Shown here piece by piece: positions 3,227 to 17,773 of a stretch of 21,658 nucleotides of DNA (the stretch's first letter is position 1; each line of letters starts with the position of its first letter). Under the pieces are notes generated by a model, which was not told the DNA's origin, did not search any database, and saw nothing but the letters and a program-made list of their open reading frames with translations. Made by a program: the position numbers and the translations under genes. This DNA is from a virus (lineage: Duplodnaviria; Heunggongvirae; Uroviricota; Caudoviricetes), in IMG/VR virus record IMGVR_UViG_3300045988_119128, positions 1 to 21,658 of that record; one strand, given 5' to 3'.

Positions 3227-4012
3227 ATGTTCAGTGATAATGTGACTAATGCGTGGTGGTTTATCTCTTTGTATCTATTTTTATTAATAGCATTAACATT
3301 TATTACCTTTGGTAAAAGTAATCTTATGAGGTTTATTGCACATCATTTCAATTTTGAGTATTCAGACAGAAAGTTAAAAATGCTCGACAAAAAATGGCGC
3401 GACATTCAACTATTTAAAATAATTAACGGAATCAATGTATCAGGCATCGAAGATGTGAGAATGATACAGCAGGGGCTGATTGATGGAAAACTAAAAACAT
3501 CGTATTTTTTTCTTACTCGCTTCTGGGGTGACATAACAAAACCACCACACATAATTAAAACAATAATTGTAATTCTGTCCAGCATTATTTATATTCTCTT
3601 CGCATGTTATATACACAACAAACAATCCGCTATAGTAAGAGATGCCATAGGCATACCATATAAAAATATGATGTACTATGTTTATAGTGACAAAGTTCTT
3701 TTATCCTTCAACAATAAAACAGTTGAATTCAATAAAACTTATAGCCTTGCCGATTGCAAGAGGCTACGAAACATATTTATAAAAGACACACTTCCTGAGA
3801 TCGCCTGCAATAAGCTCTTACGGCTAAACGAGGAGGACTCGGAATGGTTAAGTCAGGAAATTAAAGATAATAACAGCCAAAAAAAAGCATTATTAATAAT
3901 ATCCCTCATCTATTTCATTTCAGGCCTGGTTATATTTCTGTCATATACAAAATTCCTTTACGCCAATAAGAAGGTTGTAGAATACAAAGCATCAAATAAA
4001 AATCACTCATAA
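3227..4012 (+). CDS. Hypothetical membrane protein, AT-rich moron at the P2 orf30 position
   Basis: 261 aa ORF on the opposite strand to the flanking late genes, visibly AT-rich. Strong SD GAGGAG at 3215-3220, six nt before the ATG. Three hydrophobic segments (about residues 9-28, 107-127, 222-243). Lies between S and V, where P2 carries accessory orf30. Confidence 0.7.
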   Translation: MFSDNVTNAWWFISLYLFLLIALTFITFGKSNLMRFIAHHFNFEYSDRKLKMLDKKWRDIQLFKIINGINVSGIEDVRMIQQGLIDGKLKTSYFFLTRFWGDITKPPHIIKTIIVILSSIIYILFACYIHNKQSAIVRDAIGIPYKNMMYYVYSDKVLLSFNNKTVEFNKTYSLADCKRLRNIFIKDTLPEIACNKLLRLNEEDSEWLSQEIKDNNSQKKALLIISLIYFISGLVIFLSYTKFLYANKKVVEYKASNKNHS

Positions 4013-5956: not shown

Positions 5957-6454
5957 TTAAGCCGGTACACCGCCGGCGGTACGCCAGACGGTGACCAGTT
6001 TTTCCAGTGAATGCTCACGCTGACCGTAACCGGCACCCGGCAGGGACGCCCAGATATTGCGACAGCGTGAAATGGCTCGCTCAATGCGTCCCGCCCGGAT
6101 GTCATCCAGTGCACCGCGTTCGCGGATCAACTGAATGGCAAGTCTGTCCTGTGACAACGGACTGAAATCCGGCAGGGCAAGCTGTTTGCGGTAATGCGGC
6201 CAGAACAGGTAAAGCTGCTGATAGCGACCGGAGGCCGTGGATTTTTCACCGCGACGGTTAAACACCTTCGCCGGTCGGCCATGTGCGAACGGGTGGTCAC
6301 TGTAGTCGGTGAAAATTTCCGGCTTCCCGTCCAGTCCGGTGACTATCACGTCATAGCCCCGGTTTTTCGTCAGCGGATGGTTTGCCGTCCCTTCGGACAC
6401 GGCCAGCATGTCGAGAAAGGCGGCGATATTCTGATGCGTGTTAATAACCGGCAT
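5957..6454 (-). CDS. K: Endolysin gpK (lysozyme-like)
   Basis: 165 aa ORF starting MPVINTHQNIAAFLDMLAVSEGT, same length as P2 gpK; directly downstream of the holin. Confidence 0.9.
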   Translation of the reverse strand: MPVINTHQNIAAFLDMLAVSEGTANHPLTKNRGYDVIVTGLDGKPEIFTDYSDHPFAHGRPAKVFNRRGEKSTASGRYQQLYLFWPHYRKQLALPDFSPLSQDRLAIQLIRERGALDDIRAGRIERAISRCRNIWASLPGAGYGQREHSLEKLVTVWRTAGGVPA

Positions 6455-6735
6455 TACGGTTTCCCCCTGCCCTTAAAGCGGCGCTGGATGGCAATCTCAA
6501 TCACCTGATAACCGGCGATACCCAGCATGGAGCCGATACCGCACACCGCAGGCAGTGACAGGTCAGGAAACTGCACCAGAACAACACCGGCAACCATCGA
6601 GACAAAACCACCAAGCAACATGCGCCCGATAAACAGACGCGGGGTGATGGGTTCACCACCGGCAAGCACCTTGCCGACAACAATCAGCACCCCAATCATG
6701 AAAAGCGACAGGACGCTTTTTTCTTCTGCTGTCAT
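6454..6735 (-). CDS. Y: Holin gpY
   Basis: 93 aa ORF with hydrophobic TM segments; same length and position as P2 gpY. Confidence 0.85.
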   Translation of the reverse strand: MTAEEKSVLSLFMIGVLIVVGKVLAGGEPITPRLFIGRMLLGGFVSMVAGVVLVQFPDLSLPAVCGIGSMLGIAGYQVIEIAIQRRFKGRGKP

Positions 6736-6738
6736 GCG

Positions 6739-6942
6739 TTACTCCCACAGATTGACAGTTTCAGCCACGGGCGCGGTCTGAACGTCGGGCAGTTCGACGG
6801 CGGTGCCGTGTGGCAGCACCGCGCCCAGTTCAGCCAGTCCCGGATTTGCGGCGAGCACGGCCTCGACCACGCCCTCAGTGCGCCCGTAATACCGGACACA
6901 AATGGCGTCGAGCGTGTCGCCCTGTAGCGCAAAGGTCTTCAT
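6739..6942 (-). CDS. X: Tail protein gpX
   Basis: Internal ATG at 6942-6940 gives 67 aa starting MKTFALQGDTLDAICVRYYGR, matching P2 gpX length and N-terminus. Its start overlaps the L stop. Confidence 0.85.
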   Translation of the reverse strand: MKTFALQGDTLDAICVRYYGRTEGVVEAVLAANPGLAELGAVLPHGTAVELPDVQTAPVAETVNLWE

Positions 6943-7451
6943 CAGATTTGACTCACGATGCAGCGCGGCTTGTCCTGGATGCGCGCCACTGCCCAGCGCA
7001 TATCCCGCCACAGCTCATCAATGGTGCTGTCAATGCTGTCGGCCTTCTTGTCGCCTTTCGCACTGGCATCCACGCCGCGATAACGCTCATAAAGCGACGC
7101 GGTCGCCATCGCACACACGGCGCGCTCGTAGTAAAAAACTTTGATACTTTCACCGTCGATGTCGTCCGCCGGAACGTCCGCCAGACGCGTAAAACCGGCG
7201 GCAATTTTCTGTTCGCGGTACTCGTACAGCTCCGCATTTGTTTCCGCCATGCCTGACTTGATGGCCTCACGCAGACGGGCGGGGGCGACGGTCTGCTCAA
7301 GGCGCATACGTTCCCGGACGCGCTTCGGGTCGATATCTGGAAAAAAGAACGTGTTTTTAATCACCGGCTCGTCGCCTGCCGGTTGCGGGATGACCACCGT
7401 ACCCTCACCGGACACGGGAGCCTCCTTTCGCGGAATAATCAGCGTCATCAT
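6942..7451 (-). CDS. L: Head completion/stabilisation protein gpL
   Basis: Tandem ATG ATG at 7451-7446 gives 169 aa starting MMTLIIPRKEAPVSGEG, matching P2 gpL. The ORF-track frame is extended upstream of this start. Confidence 0.88.
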   Translation of the reverse strand: MMTLIIPRKEAPVSGEGTVVIPQPAGDEPVIKNTFFFPDIDPKRVRERMRLEQTVAPARLREAIKSGMAETNAELYEYREQKIAAGFTRLADVPADDIDGESIKVFYYERAVCAMATASLYERYRGVDASAKGDKKADSIDSTIDELWRDMRWAVARIQDKPRCIVSQI

Positions 7452-7550
7452 GACTACCTCTGAAAAGTCGGGCGGTGGACGCCGGTGCAGTGTCAGGTGA
7501 TTCACCCTCACTGACCGGCGTGCCGCCCTGGCGCGGGGCGCATTCGGTTG

Positions 7551-8294
7551 TTAACTGGCTTTCTTTTTCGGGCGTCCACGTTTTGCCGGTGTCACGCTCC
7601 GGGTCTTACGCGGGGTACGGGTGGCCGCTTTTGGCTGCGGCTCCGGCTTCGGTTTCAGCTCCCGCTCCAGTCGTTCAATCTCTTTTTTGACGCCTGCCTG
7701 ACAGTCGAGCTGTGTCGCACGTTGCAGATGCGCCAGCGCCCCTGCGGCATCACCAGCGTCACGCAGAAACAGACCGGTGATTTTGTGCAGCTTTGCGCGC
7801 ACTTCATCAGGCATGTCAGCCGTGGCGGTCAGTTCAAGGGTCTCCGTCAGCAGGCGGGTATCCACAGACTCACCGGCAGCGTGAGCGCGCATGGCCGCAA
7901 GCGCGACCTCCTCGGTGAACATGTACGGCGGGGTACGGCGGTGTTTACCCGGCATGGTCAGACCGTACTTCAGGGCATAACGGGCAATCTCCAGCGCACC
8001 GGCAATATCGCCGGTATCCAGACGCCACAGCATGACCGTCATCAGAATGTCATCCTGTGCACCTTTGCCCTGCTCCAGCACGCCGTTCACCCACGGCAAC
8101 CAGAACGGCAGCAGTTCGCGTTTTTTCGCGGCCTTCAGCTCTTTTGAATAAATCGCTTTCAGTGTGCGCTGGTCTGCGGCGAGCTTAACCAGCATCTGCT
8201 CATAGACAGTTGCATGTCGCAGCGGGGCGGCGTCCCGCTGCGCGGTCATCGCTGCCGAGACCCGCATCATGTGGCGCTGTGCGGGACTCGTCAT
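7551..8294 (-). CDS. M: Terminase small (endonuclease) subunit gpM
   Basis: 247 aa ORF, same length as P2 gpM, with a basic lysine/arginine-rich C-terminus; synteny N-M-L. Confidence 0.9.
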   Translation of the reverse strand: MTSPAQRHMMRVSAAMTAQRDAAPLRHATVYEQMLVKLAADQRTLKAIYSKELKAAKKRELLPFWLPWVNGVLEQGKGAQDDILMTVMLWRLDTGDIAGALEIARYALKYGLTMPGKHRRTPPYMFTEEVALAAMRAHAAGESVDTRLLTETLELTATADMPDEVRAKLHKITGLFLRDAGDAAGALAHLQRATQLDCQAGVKKEIERLERELKPKPEPQPKAATRTPRKTRSVTPAKRGRPKKKAS

Positions 8295-10457: not shown

Positions 10458-12230
10458 ATGACCATCACCACAGACACCACTCTTTTACACGACCCGCGTC
10501 GTCAGGCGGCGCTGCTGTACTGGCAGGGGTTTTCCGTGCCGCAGATTGCCGCCATGTTGCAGATGAAACGCCCGACGGTGCAGAGCTGGAAACAGCGCGA
10601 CGGCTGGGACAGCGTTGCCCCCATCAGCCGTGTCGAAATGAGTCTGGAAGCGCGGCTGACCCAGCTCATCATCAAACCGCAGAAAACCGGCGGTGACTTC
10701 AAGGAAATTGACCTGCTGGGACGCCAGATTGAACGGCTGGCGCGGGTCAACCGCTACAGTCAGACCGGCAACGAGGCAGACCTTAATCCGAACGTCGCTA
10801 ACCGCAACAAAGGCGGGCGTCGCAAACCGAAAAAGAATTTTTTCAGTGACGAGGCCATCGAAAAGCTGGAGCAGATTTTCTTTGAGCAGTCTTTCGACTA
10901 TCAGTTGCACTGGTATCGCGCCGGGCTTGAGCACCGCATCCGCGATATCCTGAAATCCCGCCAGATTGGCGCGACGTTTTATTTTTCCCGCGAGGCGCTG
11001 CTGCGCGCCCTGAAAACCGGTCATAACCAGATTTTTCTGTCGGCCAGTAAAACGCAGGCGTATGTGTTCCGCGAATACATCATCGCCTTTGCCCGGCTGG
11101 TTGACGTTGACCTGACCGGTGACCCGATTGTCCTGGGCAATAACGGCGCAAAACTGATTTTTCTCGGCACCAACTCCAACACCGCGCAGAGCCATAACGG
11201 CGACCTGTACGTCGATGAGATTTTCTGGATCCCGAATTTTCAGGTACTGCGTAAGGTGGCATCAGGTATGGCCTCACAGAGTCACCTGCGCTCGACCTAT
11301 TTCTCCACCCCGTCCACGCTGGCGCACGACGCCTATCCGTTCTGGTCGGGTGAACTGTTCAACCGGGGACGCGCCAGCGCCGCCGAACGCGTGGAAATCG
11401 ACGTCAGTCATAACGCCCTTGCCGGTGGGCTTCTCTGTGCGGACGGCCAGTGGCGGCAGATTGTCACCATTGAGGACGCCCTGAAAGGTGGCTGCACGCT
11501 GTTCGACATTGAGCAGCTTAAACGCGAAAACAGCGCCGACGATTTTAAAAACCTGTTCATGTGTGAATTTGTTGACGACAAGGCGTCGGTATTCCCGTTC
11601 GAGGAGCTGCAACGCTGCATGGTCGACACGCTGGAAGAATGGGAAGACTATGCGCCGTTTGCCGCGAATCCGTTCGGCTCCCGCCCGGTCTGGATTGGTT
11701 ACGACCCGTCACACCGTGGCGACAGTGCCGGATGCGTGGTGCTGGCACCGCCGGTGGTGGCCGGTGGCAAATTCAGAATACTTGAGCGTCACCAGTGGAA
11801 AGGCATGGACTTTGCCACCCAGGCTGAATCCATCCGCAAACTCACCGAAAAATACAACGTCGAATACATCGGTATTGATGCCACCGGCCTCGGTGTCGGC
11901 GTGTTCCAGCTCGTGCGCTCGTTCTATCCCGCCGCGCGCGACATCCGCTACACGCCGGAAATGAAAACCGCAATGGTGCTCAAGGCAAAAGACGTCATCC
12001 GCCGTGGCTGTCTGGAATACGACGTCAGCGCCACCGACATCACCAGCTCGTTTATGGCTATCCGCAAGACCATGACCAGCAGCGGACGCAGTGCCACCTA
12101 TGAAGCTAGCCGCAGCGAGGAAGCCAGCCACGCCGACCTCGCCTGGGCGACCATGCACGCCCTGTTAAATGAGCCACTCACCGCCGGTATCAGCACCCCG
12201 CTGACATCCACCATTCTGGAGTTTTACTGA
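10458..12230 (+). CDS. P: Terminase large (ATPase) subunit gpP
   Basis: ATG at 10458 with GAGG Shine-Dalgarno gives 590 aa starting MTITTDTTLLHDPRRQAALLYWQG, matching P2 gpP length and N-terminus. Confidence 0.93.
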   Translation: MTITTDTTLLHDPRRQAALLYWQGFSVPQIAAMLQMKRPTVQSWKQRDGWDSVAPISRVEMSLEARLTQLIIKPQKTGGDFKEIDLLGRQIERLARVNRYSQTGNEADLNPNVANRNKGGRRKPKKNFFSDEAIEKLEQIFFEQSFDYQLHWYRAGLEHRIRDILKSRQIGATFYFSREALLRALKTGHNQIFLSASKTQAYVFREYIIAFARLVDVDLTGDPIVLGNNGAKLIFLGTNSNTAQSHNGDLYVDEIFWIPNFQVLRKVASGMASQSHLRSTYFSTPSTLAHDAYPFWSGELFNRGRASAAERVEIDVSHNALAGGLLCADGQWRQIVTIEDALKGGCTLFDIEQLKRENSADDFKNLFMCEFVDDKASVFPFEELQRCMVDTLEEWEDYAPFAANPFGSRPVWIGYDPSHRGDSAGCVVLAPPVVAGGKFRILERHQWKGMDFATQAESIRKLTEKYNVEYIGIDATGLGVGVFQLVRSFYPAARDIRYTPEMKTAMVLKAKDVIRRGCLEYDVSATDITSSFMAIRKTMTSSGRSATYEASRSEEASHADLAWATMHALLNEPLTAGISTPLTSTILEFY

Positions 12231-13264
12231 TGAGCAAGAAAAAAGGGAAAACACCGCAACCTGCGGCAAAAAAAATGACCGCCAGCGCCCCGAAAATGGC
12301 GGCATTCACCTTTGGTGAGCCGGTGCCGGTACTCGACCGCCGTGATATTCTGGATTACGTCGAGTGCATCAGTAACGGCAGATGGTATGAGCCACCGGTC
12401 AGCTTTACCGGTCTGGCAAAAAGCCTGCGTGCTGCCGTGCATCACAGCTCACCGATTTACGTCAAACGTAATATTCTGGCCTCAACGTTTATCCCGCACC
12501 CGTGGCTTTCCCAGCAGGATTTCAGCCGCTTTGTGCTGGATTTTCTGGTGTTCGGTAATGCGTTTCTGGAAAAGCGTTACAGCACTACCGGTAAGGTCAT
12601 CAGACTGGAAACCTCACCGGCAAAATATACCCGCCGTGGGGTGGAGGAGGATGTTTACTGGTGGGTGCCGTCCTTCAACGAGCCGACACCTTTCACGCCC
12701 GGCTCCGTGTTTCACCTGCTGGAGCCGGATATTAATCAGGAGCTGTACGGCCTGCCGGAATATCTCAGCGCCCTTAACTCTGCCTGGCTGAATGAGTCGG
12801 CCACGCTGTTCCGCCGCAAGTATTACGAAAACGGCGCACATGCCGGATACATCATGTACGTCACTGATGCCGTGCAGGATCGCAACGATATCGAAATGCT
12901 TCGCGAAAACATGGTGAAGTCGAAAGGCCGCAACAACTTTAAAAACCTGTTTCTCTATGCCCCACAGGGAAAAGCCGACGGCATTAAAATTATCCCGCTC
13001 AGTGAAGTGGCGACGAAGGACGATTTTTTTAATATCAAAAAAGCCAGTGCCGCAGACCTGCTGGACGCGCACCGCATCCCCTTTCAGTTGATGGGCGGCA
13101 AGCCGGAGAACGTCGGGTCGCTGGGTGATATTGAGAAAGTGGCAAAGGTCTTTGTCCGCAATGAGCTTATCCCGTTACAGGACAGGATCCGTGAGATAAA
13201 CGGCTGGCTCGGTCAGGAGGTCATCCGCTTTAAAAACTACTCACTGGACACTGACAACGGCTGA
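12230..13264 (+). CDS. Q: Portal protein gpQ
   Basis: 344 aa ORF, same length as P2 gpQ; start overlaps the P stop; followed by terminator and cos. Confidence 0.93.
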   Translation: MSKKKGKTPQPAAKKMTASAPKMAAFTFGEPVPVLDRRDILDYVECISNGRWYEPPVSFTGLAKSLRAAVHHSSPIYVKRNILASTFIPHPWLSQQDFSRFVLDFLVFGNAFLEKRYSTTGKVIRLETSPAKYTRRGVEEDVYWWVPSFNEPTPFTPGSVFHLLEPDINQELYGLPEYLSALNSAWLNESATLFRRKYYENGAHAGYIMYVTDAVQDRNDIEMLRENMVKSKGRNNFKNLFLYAPQGKADGIKIIPLSEVATKDDFFNIKKASAADLLDAHRIPFQLMGGKPENVGSLGDIEKVAKVFVRNELIPLQDRIREINGWLGQEVIRFKNYSLDTDNG

Positions 13265-13269
13265 ACATC

Positions 13270-13291
13270 GCCGCCTGCGGGCGGCTTTTTT
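13270..13291 (+). terminator. Rho-independent terminator of the P-Q operon
   Basis: GCCGCC (13270-13275), loop TGCG, GGCGGC (13280-13285), then TTTTTT (13286-13291), 5 nt after the Q stop. Confidence 0.65.
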
Positions 13292-13432
13292 ACACCCCGT
13301 CATCACGCCCTCACACGCTCACCACCGCACAAAACACCCCGCAGACACACCAACGCCCCGGCGCACAATCTAAACGCCATCACGACGCGCTGAGACGCTA
13401 AAAAATAAAATCAGCACCACCGCCAGCGCGCA

Positions 13433-13451
13433 GTGCTTTCCCCGCCTCGCC
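13433..13451. other. cos cohesive-end site (packaging/termination site)
   Basis: GTGCTTTCCCCGCCTCGCC is the reverse complement of the 19-nt P2 cohesive end GGCGAGGCGGGGAAAGCAC as I recall it; the adjacent bases also resemble the start of the P2 genome. Lies about 170 bp beyond the portal gene, as in P2. Confidence 0.75.
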
Positions 13452-13667
13452 CGCCCGCTTCGTGGGGCGATTTTAATGCGGTTGCATGACAAATAGAAAT
13501 GCATGCTAGCCTTTACATAAGGACTACTTAGCAACACTTATATCCTCATGCAAATTCATGCAGGTTCTACATGTAATACTTTGTCTAGACAATATAAAAC
13601 TTGCACATGTTACAAAAGAAGCCTCTAAAAAAAGCAATGAGGATTCAGCCTATCAAATAACAAAATA

Positions 13668-14699
13668 TCACAAGAACTCAATTACAAATTCATTCTCTTG
13701 ATACTTACGTCCTAACATAACTTCATGTGCCGTTTCATAATTTGGCTTAACTTTTAAAGATGCATTATTATGTTTCAACAAAGTTTTAGCCCTGTACATT
13801 CCTATTCCGCTTCCCGCACGATTACTCTTTTTAGCCATAACACCAGAGTACCCCTCAATAAAGATCTTATCGATCTCATCAGGATTAATTACAAGGCTAA
13901 CCATCTTAAATGAAATAGATAATTTTTTTGTCTCTGTGTTTTTATCGAAACAAATCACCAACCTCGAATCAGGCTTAATATATTTAACAGAGTTTTCAAT
14001 TAAATGATACACAGCAACCTGAAAAGTCTCATAATCAATATATACCGTATCATTAGATTCAGCCACTTCAACACGAATTCCCTTATCCGTAAACTCAGGG
14101 AAAAAGACATACACTATATTCATTAAAACTCGATGAATACTATGATTTCTCAATGCTATTTTTGGATGCTCACTCAATAAAGCATTATAAACATCTATCT
14201 CAGCCTTCATCTTGAGTGTATTTTTTGCAATATTAACTAATGACAATCCTGCATCATATGGGTCTTCAGCCACCTGTTCTTTTATTCTATTTTTCCAACC
14301 CGCTCGCTTATCCTGCATAACTTCTTGAGGGATAATAGAGTAAACCTCTTGGATAATATGACCATTGAGAGTAACCAAGTTATGAATCAATCGATTAACA
14401 TGTTGCTTTGCCTCTTCCTTAGCCTTACGGTGAGCTTCTTGCACGGAAGGAATACCGTCAAGCAACATCTCAGCTTTAGCTCGTGCAACTTTCGAACTCT
14501 TAAGCATTGCATCATTTGCTGATATTAATGTTACAACTCCAAATTGATTGGATACTCTTACAGCTCTATAGGCAACTTTATTATATGAGAACTTAACTGA
14601 CTCTGCCTTCAGAGAGTTGAAGTGCTCTAAAAGCTCCCTCTCAATATTATTGACTAACAAACAACCATCTGTCGTTTCCAACTTATAATAAAAAGACAT
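13668..14699 (-). CDS. Histidine-kinase-like ATPase (GHKL family), soluble; cargo gene 2 of island
   Basis: 343 aa AT-rich ORF with ATG at 14699-14697, 12 nt after the upstream gene stop. Motifs by eye: candidate H-box LIHNLVTLNGH, N-box-like VYHLIENSVKY, G2-like GSGIGMY; no clean DxGxG G1 box. No TM segment. Confidence 0.65.
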   Translation of the reverse strand: MSFYYKLETTDGCLLVNNIERELLEHFNSLKAESVKFSYNKVAYRAVRVSNQFGVVTLISANDAMLKSSKVARAKAEMLLDGIPSVQEAHRKAKEEAKQHVNRLIHNLVTLNGHIIQEVYSIIPQEVMQDKRAGWKNRIKEQVAEDPYDAGLSLVNIAKNTLKMKAEIDVYNALLSEHPKIALRNHSIHRVLMNIVYVFFPEFTDKGIRVEVAESNDTVYIDYETFQVAVYHLIENSVKYIKPDSRLVICFDKNTETKKLSISFKMVSLVINPDEIDKIFIEGYSGVMAKKSNRAGSGIGMYRAKTLLKHNNASLKVKPNYETAHEVMLGRKYQENEFVIEFL

Positions 14700-14711
14700 T
14701 TTAAAGCACCA

Positions 14712-15329
14712 TCAAGCAAAACTTTCTACAATTGTCTGGAACTGATAAGGATCTGCATCCTTTGGTAAAAAATCGTCTACCTCTCGAAGAGCTTTATGGA
14801 ATCTATCACCTGTTTGCTCTGCGGAGTAGATAATGATTTTCTTTTCTGGATATTTTGTTTTCAAAGCGAGAGCCAAGCCCAACCCTTCTTCGTTAGGTGT
14901 AATTTCAAGCCCAACCCCTTGTATATCAACAAAGATTATCTTAGCTTCCCTTATTTCGACTTGATCAATACTATCTGCATCCTTAATTAGCTTCGTATGC
15001 ACCCAACCGGCCTTTTGTAAAATCTTAACTACTTTAAATCTCACTTCATCATCAATAAAAAGTATTTTTGTAGTGTTTTTTTTATAATCCAGATCTTTTT
15101 TATCATCCACCATGGCATCATCCTTCTTAGAAGAGTCTAAGTTACCATTATAGATGTTCAAATTGACATTTTGTTCATTTGTAATCGGTTTGGAGTCCTG
15201 AACAACAGCCTGTGTTTGGCCTGAAAAGAACTTTTTCCACACGACACTCCCAAGCCACCCAACAATAGTTACACCAACACCACCAAAAGCCCAGTTGATT
15301 AAAGGATGAGAAGACGGGTCGAAATCCAT
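14712..15329 (-). CDS. Membrane-anchored receiver-domain (REC) protein without DNA-binding output; cargo gene 1 of island
   Basis: ATG at 15329-15327 with GAGG Shine-Dalgarno 6 nt upstream gives 205 aa (MDFDPSS...); the ORF-track start at 15386 is a TTG. One N-terminal TM helix (INWAFGGVGVTIVGWLGSVVW), a charged linker, then a CheY-like receiver: KILFIDDE, IIFVDIQG (candidate phosphoacceptor Asp), IIIYSA, LPKD. Confidence 0.7.
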   Translation of the reverse strand: MDFDPSSHPLINWAFGGVGVTIVGWLGSVVWKKFFSGQTQAVVQDSKPITNEQNVNLNIYNGNLDSSKKDDAMVDDKKDLDYKKNTTKILFIDDEVRFKVVKILQKAGWVHTKLIKDADSIDQVEIREAKIIFVDIQGVGLEITPNEEGLGLALALKTKYPEKKIIIYSAEQTGDRFHKALREVDDFLPKDADPYQFQTIVESFA

Positions 15330-15357
15330 GATAACCTCAATAAAATAAGAAAATTCT

Positions 15358-15386
15358 ACTATAAACAAAATTCTTAATTCGATCAA
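15358..15386 (-). promoter_or_regulatory. Candidate sigma70 promoter for the island operon
   Basis: On the minus strand: -35 TTGATC (15386-15381), 17-bp spacer, -10 TATAGT (15363-15358), about 30 nt upstream of the REC-gene ATG, in the AT-rich gap after the A stop. Confidence 0.35.
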
Positions 15387-15496
15387 TAGCTTAAAAAATC
15401 GACACCCGATGTGGTTGGTAGGCTATATGCTGTAGAAGTAGACAATTTCGTTCATCAGTTACTAAAAAACCTCAAACGATAGTAGTTAAGCCCCAA

Positions 15497-17773
15497 TTAA
15501 TAAAATGTAGTGAATCCACGAAACTCATTTTCAGATGAGTACACAGCTTTATAATTACCATATGAAATCGTGGCCCCGCGCGCCAGCGCCTCAAGCTCCC
15601 ATCGCTGCGGCCTGATACCGTTCTGAGCAAGGTCAACGCGGATACGAGTAATTTGCAATCGTTCCGACCGGGTCAGTCTGGCCGACGGTGCTATTTCATG
15701 TGGTTTTAACGGGCTTCCGTTTCTTTGCTGACGACTTGGCGTTCTCAGCCCGTGTTTTAATGCGCCCCTGAGCGTCCTCACGACCTCCGGGTCATTCCAT
15801 TCGATAACACCGTCATCAACCAGATTTAGCACTGCTGCGGCGTGCTCAGAAGGTGTGGGAGCCAGTAACGAAGGATCACCACCGGTGAGCTTTCCACAGT
15901 TATTGACAGGACTCCGAGGCGCGGCGATGCCGCTTTTTAAAGTCAAAGGCTCCACGACCGGAACTTTCGGCACAATGCGCCAGTCCGTCGTTCTGGTGAT
16001 ATGAATATGACGCGCGCCGAGATGCGGCGCGTAAATGCCGACCACTCTCTCGACTTCTTCCTCGTACTCGTTAACTTCATCCGACGGGCTACGGGCGACT
16101 CTGACAGTCTGGCAATCGCGCGGAACATTTGCCCCACCCTGCGCACTGATATACAACGCAAAATCGCCACTGTCTGCGGCAGCGCGTGCAGCCTCGACGC
16201 GTTCGTCAAACTCATCAGCAATGCTGACGCCGCGAGGCAATTTGCGTAGTTCACGGTAAGCCCCCATTGTCGGCAGACCAACCGTTTTAAATTGCGGGAT
16301 GCGCCACGTTGACGCCCATGCAGTAACAGCCGCGGCAGTATCTTTCAGCGGTCTGCCGGTATCGTTATCGAGCTGCCCATCCAGTGCATAGCCGTCGATA
16401 TTTTTTGAGATGTATTTCGCGATATACCCCGCAGCACCGCCCCGGTTAAGATGTTTTGCCTGAAAACGGTTTCGCGCGGCTCCTCTTTCGTCGCCATCCT
16501 CTTTGAGCGCATAGCGACGCATGATTTCGATAATCTGGTTACGCTGGCGTGGATTACAAAAAAGCATCATATGCCAGTGCGGCGTTCCGTCGTGGTGTGG
16601 CTCGACGACACGCAAACCGTAGGCCTGTAAATCATTATCCTTGAATGCCGTGCGCATCAGGCTCCAGATACGGCAGAGATAACGCTGCGCATCCTTTGGA
16701 TTAAATGCCTTATCGTTCCAGCCGTGATTAAGCTGAACGGTTTTACTTTCGCCTTTTCCGACCTGACGTGTCGGGTGATACTTTGACGGTGCGGTCAGCG
16801 TGATAAACATCCCCACATCACCCTCTGCAGCGGCGTAACGCTCAATACCGGCAATGGTGTTCATCAGCTCCATCCGGCGAATTTCAGGATTAGAAATACT
16901 GCCCATCACCTTACTGATAAGGTCGATGCGCTCGCCGGTTTCCTTATTTTCAAGGTCACACGATTTAAGAAATTCCAGATTTGCCTGGCGGCGTGCACGC
17001 ACATCACGAATGGCATGTTTACTGGCATAAGGAGAACGGTCTTTATTGACCTCCCCGACAGCAATCAGTAACGCCTCATGCCAGCGCATACGCTGGCCTT
17101 TAAGCTGATGAGTCCACCACTCATCGTTAAACAGACGGGCAATGGCAGAATATGCCTGCCTCGTGGTCATCTGCCCTTTACGGTATTTTTTCCAGTAGAG
17201 AGGGGAAATATTGAAAGCTCGTGCAGCGCCAGCAACATGACCATACAGGTGAGCCTGCGCCTCATCCGTAAACAGCGATTCTTTCTCGCCATGCGCATCC
17301 ACCCAGGCATCGCAGAGTTCCTCATACATCATGAAAAGCTGTGATGAGATACGGGCGGCAAACTTTTTCAGCTCCTTGTCATTCATTCCAGGCAAACGCG
17401 CATAATGGTCACGCTCTGCCAGAAACAGCAACGACGCGTCGGTGTTCATTTCATGGCGCTGATTCACACGCTCAATGCGCGGCCATAAACGACGCTGAAA
17501 AGTGGATGTGAGGAAATAAAACCCGTGCACCGGGCTTTTATTGCGCCGGATGTAGTCATAGCGTGAAGTAAACAGCGAGCGCAAAAAATAAGGCAGGCGG
17601 TTAATCGTGGATAAAACACCTTGCACCTGACGCATCTCGTCACGTGTAAGAGGTCTTTCGCGCCCGACAGCCTCGCGTGGCGCGTTCCATGCATAAGCAC
17701 CGGTAAACGTCTTACCGGTGCCTGCGGCAAATGCTGACGGAGGGACAAAACGCCCGGAGGCTTTAACGGCCAT
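15497..17773 (-). CDS. A: Replication initiation endonuclease gpA (rolling-circle Rep)
   Basis: ATG at 17773-17771 gives a protein starting MAVKASGRFVPPSAFAAGTG, the P2 gpA N-terminus; the ORF-track start at 17815 is a TTG. Contains HWH (PHWHMMLF) and tyrosine (AGYIAKYISK) motifs typical of rolling-circle initiators. The last ~23 codons are AT-rich and appear to differ from P2. Confidence 0.9.
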   Translation of the reverse strand: MAVKASGRFVPPSAFAAGTGKTFTGAYAWNAPREAVGRERPLTRDEMRQVQGVLSTINRLPYFLRSLFTSRYDYIRRNKSPVHGFYFLTSTFQRRLWPRIERVNQRHEMNTDASLLFLAERDHYARLPGMNDKELKKFAARISSQLFMMYEELCDAWVDAHGEKESLFTDEAQAHLYGHVAGAARAFNISPLYWKKYRKGQMTTRQAYSAIARLFNDEWWTHQLKGQRMRWHEALLIAVGEVNKDRSPYASKHAIRDVRARRQANLEFLKSCDLENKETGERIDLISKVMGSISNPEIRRMELMNTIAGIERYAAAEGDVGMFITLTAPSKYHPTRQVGKGESKTVQLNHGWNDKAFNPKDAQRYLCRIWSLMRTAFKDNDLQAYGLRVVEPHHDGTPHWHMMLFCNPRQRNQIIEIMRRYALKEDGDERGAARNRFQAKHLNRGGAAGYIAKYISKNIDGYALDGQLDNDTGRPLKDTAAAVTAWASTWRIPQFKTVGLPTMGAYRELRKLPRGVSIADEFDERVEAARAAADSGDFALYISAQGGANVPRDCQTVRVARSPSDEVNEYEEEVERVVGIYAPHLGARHIHITRTTDWRIVPKVPVVEPLTLKSGIAAPRSPVNNCGKLTGGDPSLLAPTPSEHAAAVLNLVDDGVIEWNDPEVVRTLRGALKHGLRTPSRQQRNGSPLKPHEIAPSARLTRSERLQITRIRVDLAQNGIRPQRWELEALARGATISYGNYKAVYSSENEFRGFTTFY

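Follow-up and report, generated by a model that had tools for sequence, protein, structure and literature searches.

A histidine-kinase-type protein and a membrane-anchored receiver protein encoded side by side in a P2-like prophage match the candidate defence system PDC-M43

The stretch of DNA analysed here (the window: all 21,658 nucleotides of the IMG/VR viral record IMGVR_UViG_3300045988_119128) carries two adjacent minus-strand genes, encoding a receiver protein and, downstream of it, a protein of histidine-kinase type (Table 1). The window belongs to a P2-like prophage, in which annotation assigns the genes flanking the pair to terminase, portal, capsid, baseplate and replication endonuclease functions, and bases 13300-15600 (2.3 kb) are 100% identical to E. 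coli DETEC-P881 (NZ_CP116100.1). Both proteins match the PADLOC candidate PDC-M43 from end to end and in the same two-gene order. The kinase matches PDLC04650 (PDC-M43B; E-value: 1.1e-172) over residues 1-342, corresponding to positions 1-343 of the 344 in the model, and the receiver protein, encoded on the same strand, matches PDLC04646 (PDC-M43A; E-value: 1.1e-81). The locus is a member of PDC-M43 from which it differs structurally in nothing. The family is already catalogued as a candidate under this name.

Homologues of the kinase were collected in three sets: 77 sequences from a search of 5.8 billion proteins, 86 translated from genome and viral loci, and 141 further representatives of clusters at 50% identity. 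The family comprises 470 clusters (E-value of 1e-30 or better) among 1.84 billion representatives, all of approximately 340-350 amino acids (aa). Of 85 loci, 82 have a receiver gene immediately upstream of the kinase gene and in the same orientation; in the remaining three a contig end interrupts the locus, so that the pair is present in all 82 loci in which it could be looked for. At the junctions of these loci the two genes mostly overlap by 4, 1 or 8 nucleotides (nt), and nearly all junctions fall between -35 and +14 nt. The initial annotation had placed the kinase start 12 nt after the receiver stop and proposed coupled expression. The distance is exact, and because short overlaps are typical of the family junctions, coupled expression appears to be a family trait. 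The receiver and kinase genes form an obligate, translationally linked two-gene cassette of 1.65 kb that has no other component. A conserved third gene was sought by comparing 430 neighbouring open reading frames (ORFs) all against all and was rejected: no cluster had more than three members, and the clusters included gpA, HsdR and a YhcG-type nuclease.

The distribution of the pair is patchy. It is found in Gamma- and Betaproteobacteria, many Bacteroidota, Verrucomicrobiota, Planctomycetota, Patescibacteria, Bdellovibrio, Fibrobacterota and Endomicrobium, and also on conjugative plasmids, where it lies between IS3 and Tn3 transposase genes or adjoins HigBA. One such copy, on the E. coli IncF plasmid pZ1322MEC0001-2 (locus L087, 1-3189), is bounded by the IS3 and Tn3 transposases and has genes for NACHT-domain and DUF3800 proteins a few kb away.

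Database searches agree with the earlier reading of the larger gene product as a soluble protein of histidine-kinase type. Every PDB sequence match with an E-value of 4.6e-6 to 0.017, obtained with either the single protein or a profile of the 77-sequence set, is the catalytic domain of a sensor kinase or bacteriophytochrome; SrrB, YycG/WalK, VanS, CusS, HK853, PhoR, CpxA and BceS are among them. NCBIfam matches are likewise limited to sensor histidine kinases and cover residues ~180-322; alignments with kinases of solved structure reach no further than about residue 322. Residues 223-319 score 25.9 bits against the Pfam HATPase_c model (cut-off 26.4; E-value: 1.4e-5), and two relatives exceed the cut-off (P0024 with 36.7 bits and P0050 with 34.6 bits). 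An AlphaFold2 model built on the homologue alignment has a mean predicted local distance difference test (pLDDT) score of 91. In this model a small alpha/beta domain takes up residues 1-60, the catalytic alpha/beta domain spans residues 183-342, and the chain ends with the latter, without a transducer domain. The 50 best PDB matches listed by Foldseek for the model are sensor kinases, phytochrome kinases or the kinase-like protein DivL (E-values: 2e-14 to 3e-10). The best 19-residue hydropathy window reaches 0.83, hence the protein has no membrane segment. The RefSeq name of the protein, "HAMP domain-containing histidine kinase", was considered and set aside, as there is neither a HAMP match in Pfam nor a membrane segment. 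Together, these matches and the model identify the protein as a soluble sensor histidine kinase, predicted to be of the dimer type, in which a variable input domain is followed by a dimerisation/histidine-phosphotransfer (DHp) hairpin and a catalytic (CA) domain of the Bergerat fold.

The H-box, N box and G2-like motifs described in the initial annotation are all present. The H-box reads R103-L-I-H106-N107-L-V-T-L-N112-G-H114 (His106 codon: 14382-14384), conforming to a family pattern of R-L-x-H-N-L-x-[ST]-x-N, and His106 lies within the first helix (residues 83-120) of the modelled hairpin. The N box is E235-N236-x-x-K239-Y240 and the G2 box is G296-S-G298-I-G300. His106, Asn236, Lys239, Tyr240, Gly296, Gly298 and Gly300 are invariant in the 86-sequence set and in all 141 of the cluster representatives, with the exception of Lys239 and Gly300 (140/141 each). 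Across all three sets, the residues that are invariant or nearly so are His106, Asn107, Asp222, Asn236, Lys239, Tyr240, Gly296, Gly298 and Gly300. That His106, the N box and the G2 box are kept so strictly suggests genuine phosphoryl chemistry involving a nucleotide.

The G1 box had been described as degenerate. It is indeed non-canonical, but it has not decayed. In ungapped alignments with SrrB (6paj) and YycG (3sl2), residues K265-M266-V267-S268-L269-V270-I271 face the sequence K-D-x-G-x-G-I. The Asp of this motif is replaced by Met266 (86/86 and 140/141; codon 13902-13904) and its first Gly by Ser268 (86/86 and 141/141; codon 13896-13898), and Asp occurs at the position in no member. Since Met266 and Ser268 are kept family-wide, the change represents a fixed family signature rather than decay. 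A decayed gene, or a pseudokinase produced by drift, was accordingly rejected: Met266, Ser268, Asn107 and Asn336 are invariant or nearly so across phyla. Across GHKL proteins, the G1 Asp contacts adenine N6. Judging from its position in the motif layout, the nearly invariant Asn336 in the last strand might replace this lost Asp in base recognition. ATP may thus be used in a changed way, be bound with low affinity, or be recognised through a different invariant residue, for example Asn336.

The first ~80 residues of the kinase had been noted as matching no recognised family, and this holds: residues 1-82 have no Pfam match (best E-value: 0.096). The only PDB sequence matches outside sensor-kinase catalytic domains are two marginal ones to PslE (E-values: 0.24-0.25; residues 4-71), and a search of BFVD for viral structural relatives returned none that was significant (best E-value: 0.02). 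The predicted fold resembles those of sensory domains and occupies the input position, and the domain is the fastest-evolving region of the protein. In one sub-clade of the family (for example P0058-P0070; alignment A3, columns ~22-70) the N-terminal domain is rich in Cys, with the pattern E-C-x2-C-x3-C ... C-P-K-Y-G ... F-L-C-C, which the window protein does not have. This pattern suggests a metal or redox site in the sub-clade.

The partner protein is taken to start at the ATG chosen by PGAP; the mechanically called ORF reaches back to a TTG at 15386. Near its N-terminus is a predicted transmembrane helix in which W13, G17 and G19 are conserved among the homologues, and a hydrophobic N-terminal segment is found in at least 71 of 83 receiver homologues, across several sequence types. 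An acidic N-terminal tail precedes the helix and K32-K33 follows it. Because of these flanking charges we infer, via the positive-inside rule, that the receiver domain is cytoplasmic. After the helix comes a linker of ~50 poorly conserved residues (22% identity), and then the receiver domain. Its site consists of D93/D94, D135, S169 and K190 (spacings of 41, 34 and 21 residues), with D93, D94 and D135 present in 83/83 homologues and S169 and K190 in 82/83, and it aligns to D12/D13, D57 and T87 of CheY. The Pfam Response_reg model is matched over 110 of its 111 positions (1-110), with 23.3 bits against a cut-off of 30.2 (E-value: 7.3e-5), and an hhalign comparison with a single CheY sequence gives an E-value of 0.057. 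PDB searches by sequence found no relatives, even with a profile. Neither Pfam nor NCBIfam detected a DNA-binding or enzymatic output domain. These features characterize the partner as a predicted single-pass membrane protein, the sole globular part of which, the receiver domain, has all residues of the phospho-acceptor site. The mean pairwise identity of the receiver domain is 71%, which is high for a mobile gene, and it contains the invariant runs E-G-L-G-L-A and Y-S-A-E-x-x-G-D-R-F-H. Such conservation hints at several constrained interaction surfaces.

Table 1. Coordinates of the PDC-M43 cassette, its encoded domains and the flanking features in the window
Feature	Coordinates	Strand	Basis or remarks
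P2-type portal gene gpQ (left flank)	12230..13264	+	Annotation
Terminator-like hairpin	13270-13285		3' of gpQ, followed by cos-region sequence
Low-GC cargo island with two minus-strand genes	13496..15496 (2 kb)		cos-proximal gpQ-gpA slot; composition and flanks
PDC-M43B, soluble histidine-kinase-type protein, 343 aa, ATG start	13668..14699	-	RefSeq WP_113415494
Catalytic (CA, Bergerat-fold) domain, residues 176-343	13671..14174	-	HATPase_c, SrrB/YycG alignments, conservation
Linker helix and DHp hairpin, residues 63-175	14175..14513	-	Model helices 63-81, 83-120 and 147-175
N-terminal input domain, residues 1-62, five strands and one helix	14514..14699	-	Predicted Roadblock/longin/PAS-GAF-like sandwich
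Intergenic spacer	14700..14711 (12 nt)	-	Receiver stop 14712-14714, kinase ATG 14697-14699; GGTG 8 nt upstream of ATG
PDC-M43A, membrane-anchored receiver protein, 205 aa from ATG 15329	14712..15329	-	RefSeq WP_176600426, PGAP start
Receiver (REC) domain, residues 87-205	14715..15071	-	Phospho-acceptor Asp135, codon 14925-14927
Predicted single transmembrane helix, residues ~11-31, W13-x-F-x-G17-x-G19	15237..15299	-	Hydropathy 1.46 over residues 13-31
Sigma-70-like promoter match, candidate operon promoter	15358..15386	-	TTGATC, 17 nt spacer, TATAGT; 29 nt upstream of receiver ATG
P2-type replication endonuclease gene gpA (right flank)	15497..17773	-	Pfam Phage_GPA (E-value: 1.5e-123) and PGAP annotation

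The island that contains the pair has a GC content of 35.5%, compared with 52.8% in the rest of the window. Homology of the flanking cos-region sequence with 2153 E. coli genomes ends at ~13495, and the island itself is present in only one of 5426 complete E. coli genomes. As expected of hotspot cargo, it lies between gpQ/cos and gpA, in a slot whose content differs among related prophages. In P2 this slot holds old and tin, and it is a defence hotspot for which 1,650 arrangements have been recorded (Rousset et al. 2022, PMC9122126). In three P2-like contigs from IMG/VR, homologues with 78-80% and 60% identity follow gpA directly on its downstream side. In two further P2-like elements of E. 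coli with the same portal and gpA flanks (NZ_CP098197.1, locus L089, and NZ_CP070157.1, locus L090), the slot is occupied by a single gene for a 610-aa DUF7380 protein (6304-8136 in each).

PDC-M43 was defined by its location within BREX, DISARM or type I restriction-modification (R-M) loci, a criterion termed "guilt by embedding" (Payne, Hughes, Fineran and Jackson 2024, bioRxiv 10.1101/2024.01.29.577857). In the cassette table of that study it is CAS_00151 (FAM_00604>>FAM_02649), with a count of 72 and the entry "Assign as candidate" (10.1101/2024.01.29.577857). The initial annotation had proposed a search for homologous pairs in other defence islands, and such pairs were found: at least two lie inside type I R-M operons and a third lies beside HsdR. 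In the first operon (locus L041) the order on one strand is HsdM, receiver, kinase and HsdS, with HsdR downstream; in the second (L059) it is HsdS, receiver, kinase, a YhcG-type nuclease and HsdR; and in the third locus (L009) the pair follows HsdR.

We propose, with moderate confidence, that the kinase and receiver proteins constitute a self-contained His-Asp phosphorelay with a membrane output, and that this relay is defensive, PDC-M43 being carried as cargo of the P2-like prophage. An anti-phage role is probable from context. The variable N-terminal domain would sense a cue of phage infection, and would thereby determine how far the transmitter acts as a kinase and how far as a phosphatase. 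A phosphoryl group would then pass from His106 to Asp135 of the receiver, phosphorylation would alter the self-association of the receiver domain, and the linker would relay the change to the transmembrane helix. Because this helix is the only other part of the receiver protein, the output would be exerted at the inner membrane, where it could consist of permeabilisation or depolarisation that aborts the infection, or of a block to a membrane step of the phage cycle. A stronger form of the proposal can be put forward only tentatively: His-Asp phosphotransfer may itself be the immune signal, with a soluble kinase of diversifying input phosphorylating a membrane-anchored receiver effector that disrupts either the membrane itself or a step of the phage cycle that takes place there.

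Several observations weigh against a defensive phosphorelay with membrane output. On the kinase side, searches of Pfam for a DHp family (HisKA, HisKA_2, HisKA_3, His_kinase and HWE_HK), with the whole protein or with residues 68-182, gave no match at E-values up to 10. The G1 Asp is missing from every family member. In HisKA-type kinases an acidic residue after the His is needed for autokinase activity; the residue here is Asn107, so that autophosphorylation with ATP is not assured. The receiver assignment is based on sub-threshold profile matches and a residue pattern, and a membrane-damaging output is a pure inference from the absence of other domains. In the searchable literature PDC-M43 appears only in its candidate listing and no experiment on it was found, so that anti-phage activity is deduced from context only; the literature otherwise yielded unrelated systems (Ambrosia, a predicted purine-phosphorylase/TPR/HATPase/REC system and Schlafen-minimal kinase fusions). 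Finally, the neighbours in many of the 85 loci are housekeeping genes, such as those for glycine cleavage, Met-tRNA synthetase, PEP carboxylase and Mur ligase, and the association with defence islands is therefore not strong.

The changes to the kinase motifs raise a first alternative, in which the kinase-like protein autophosphorylates poorly and acts as a phosphatase or holder of the receiver, similar to the antitoxin of a toxin-antitoxin module. The receiver would be phosphorylated by acetyl phosphate or by cross-talk, infection would inactivate or titrate the guard through its N-terminal domain, and phosphorylated receiver would accumulate until the membrane effector fires. We consider this unlikely, although several features fit it. 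Two residues linked to autokinase activity are changed throughout the family (the G1 Asp to Met266 and the acidic residue at His+1 to Asn107), while the residue at His+4 stays Ser/Thr; as Willett and Kirby reportedly described in 2012, a Ser/Thr at His+4 is the phosphatase position in HisKA kinases. The retained N and G2 boxes fit a nucleotide that serves as a cofactor, and the gene order and overlap resemble those of two-gene toxin-antitoxin modules. However, His106 is 100% invariant, a stricter conservation than phosphatase activity alone would normally demand, and there are kinase families, namely the HWE/HisKA_2 and LytS-type kinases, that are active without an acidic residue at His+1. Toxicity of the receiver is, moreover, a supposition only.

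The gene neighbourhoods raise a second alternative, that the proteins are a non-defensive accessory signalling pair, for instance a moron that tunes a membrane function of the host and hitch-hikes in the variable regions of mobile elements. The housekeeping genes that flank many loci and the lack of a defence experiment in the searchable literature would fit such a pair, as would the fact that P2-hotspot cargo is not always defensive: of the systems that Rousset et al. cloned, only about one third showed activity against their phage panel (PMC9122126). Nevertheless, the pair recurs at sites that select for defence (the gpA-gpQ hotspot in four P2-like elements, type I R-M operons at two loci from distant phyla and, as a sister pair, the P4 hotspot). 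It is also scattered over many phyla, lies here in a low-GC island found in a single one of the E. coli genomes searched, and has a receiver without the DNA-binding or enzymatic output that ordinary regulation would employ. An accessory role of this kind is thus improbable in our view. The third alternative, that the larger protein is a non-kinase GHKL ATPase clamp of the MORC, Hsp90, MutL or gyrase-B type, like the paraMORC or GHKL-Shedu defence proteins, is rejected as highly improbable: divergence is hinted at by nothing more than the absent G1 Asp and a HATPase_c score below the threshold, whereas all significant sequence matches and the 50 best listed fold matches are sensor kinases with DHp and CA domains, no transducer domain follows the CA domain, the hairpin contains an invariant His and a receiver partner is obligate. 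The initial annotation would have given up the kinase reading if MORC, Hsp90 or gyrase had been the best structural match and a conserved His had been lacking; none of these is among the 50 best matches listed by Foldseek, and the His is invariant in the 86- and 141-sequence sets.

The proposed defensive phosphorelay can be compared with several known systems. Classical two-component systems (HK853-RR468, WalK/YycG, SrrB and CusS) provide the best sequence and fold matches of the window kinase and share with the pair a DHp hairpin bearing the His, a CA domain of the Bergerat fold in which the N and G2 boxes are found, and a cognate receiver, encoded alongside, that has the Asp-Asp / Asp / Ser-Thr / Lys site. 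There are several differences. First, the topology is inverted, in that the kinase is soluble and the receiver is in the membrane. Second, the receiver has no DNA-binding or enzymatic output. Third, in comparison with class I kinases, the window kinase has Met-x-Ser in place of the G1 Asp-x-Gly-x-Gly, fails to match HisKA-type models and has Asn at His+1. Fourth, the cassette is mobile cargo and not a core regulator.

A closer relative is system no. 66 of the P4-satellite hotspot, "Response_reg | HATPase_c", which is listed with 12 occurrences in supplementary file 2 of Rousset et al. 2022 (PMC9122126); no mention of it was found in the main text of that paper. It has the same receiver-then-kinase order, occurs in the cos-proximal hotspot of P2/P4 and matches PDC-M43A (E-value: 5e-15) and PDC-M43B (E-value: 1e-12). 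Its receiver is 29% identical to that of the window, with the family motifs in common, and its CA domain is 27% identical, with a G1 region of V-I-S-T-G-P that also has no Asp. The two systems differ in that the P4 receiver domain is N-terminal and continues into a helical extension that ends in a hydrophobic tail at the C-terminus, whereas the window protein has an N-terminal helix, and in that the N-terminal region of the P4 kinase (~130 residues, Cys-containing) is unrelated. By sequence comparison, we take system 66 to be a distant sister of PDC-M43.

Ambrosia, for which there is experimental support as a defence system, consists of five genes, encoding a methylase, an HNH nuclease, a sensor kinase/HATPase protein, a REC-wHTH regulator and an XRE regulator (bioRxiv 10.1101/2025.09.30.679545). 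It likewise needs histidine-kinase-like and receiver proteins, but its two-component module is proposed to control transcription of an R-M-like effector via the DNA-binding regulator, while the window pair has no further genes and no DNA-binding domain. The old and tin genes of P2 occupy the same position between gpA and cos/gpQ and have the same expected role in exclusion; their proteins are unrelated to the pair, with no similarity in sequence or domains. CBASS effectors of the Cap15 type and the transmembrane effectors of Pycsar combine a signal-binding domain with transmembrane helices and are switched by cyclic nucleotides. They resemble the logic proposed for the receiver, that of a cytoplasmic switch acting through membrane helices, although the proposed switch here is Asp phosphorylation and not a cyclic nucleotide; there is no homology, and the analogy serves as a lead only. 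The cassette also differs from the GHKL-nuclease defence proteins.

Two-component phosphorelays are the main signalling device of bacteria, and in phage defence they have so far been proposed only as regulators, as in Ambrosia. If the cassette defends, it would be the first two-component system to form a complete anti-phage system instead of regulating one; Asp phosphorylation would join the second signals of immunity, and a receiver domain would have been found to drive a membrane effector directly. The kinase family would be a natural one in which the universal adenine-binding Asp of GHKL proteins is replaced, and the Met-x-Ser pocket would represent a new mode of nucleotide binding, possibly tuned to the nucleotide pool of the infected cell. 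In the opposite case, PADLOC should drop a candidate that many genome surveys now count. The cassette is small, occurs in many phyla and here occupies a hotspot of an E. coli prophage, a setting in which cloning and tests against phages are routine.

The promoter match upstream of the receiver gene comes from a consensus scan only; it agrees at 9 of 12 positions, and the number of such sites is not above that in shuffled sequence. No RNA element in the island matched Rfam at E-values up to 0.1. A second low-GC gene (3227-4012, plus strand; GC content of 0.33-0.40) lies between the baseplate V and virion-morphogenesis genes. Its 261-aa product has no PADLOC match and no Pfam match above the cut-off, and it matches phrog_2407 ("unknown function") over its full length (E-value: 6e-143). 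This locus may be another variable cargo slot of the prophage.

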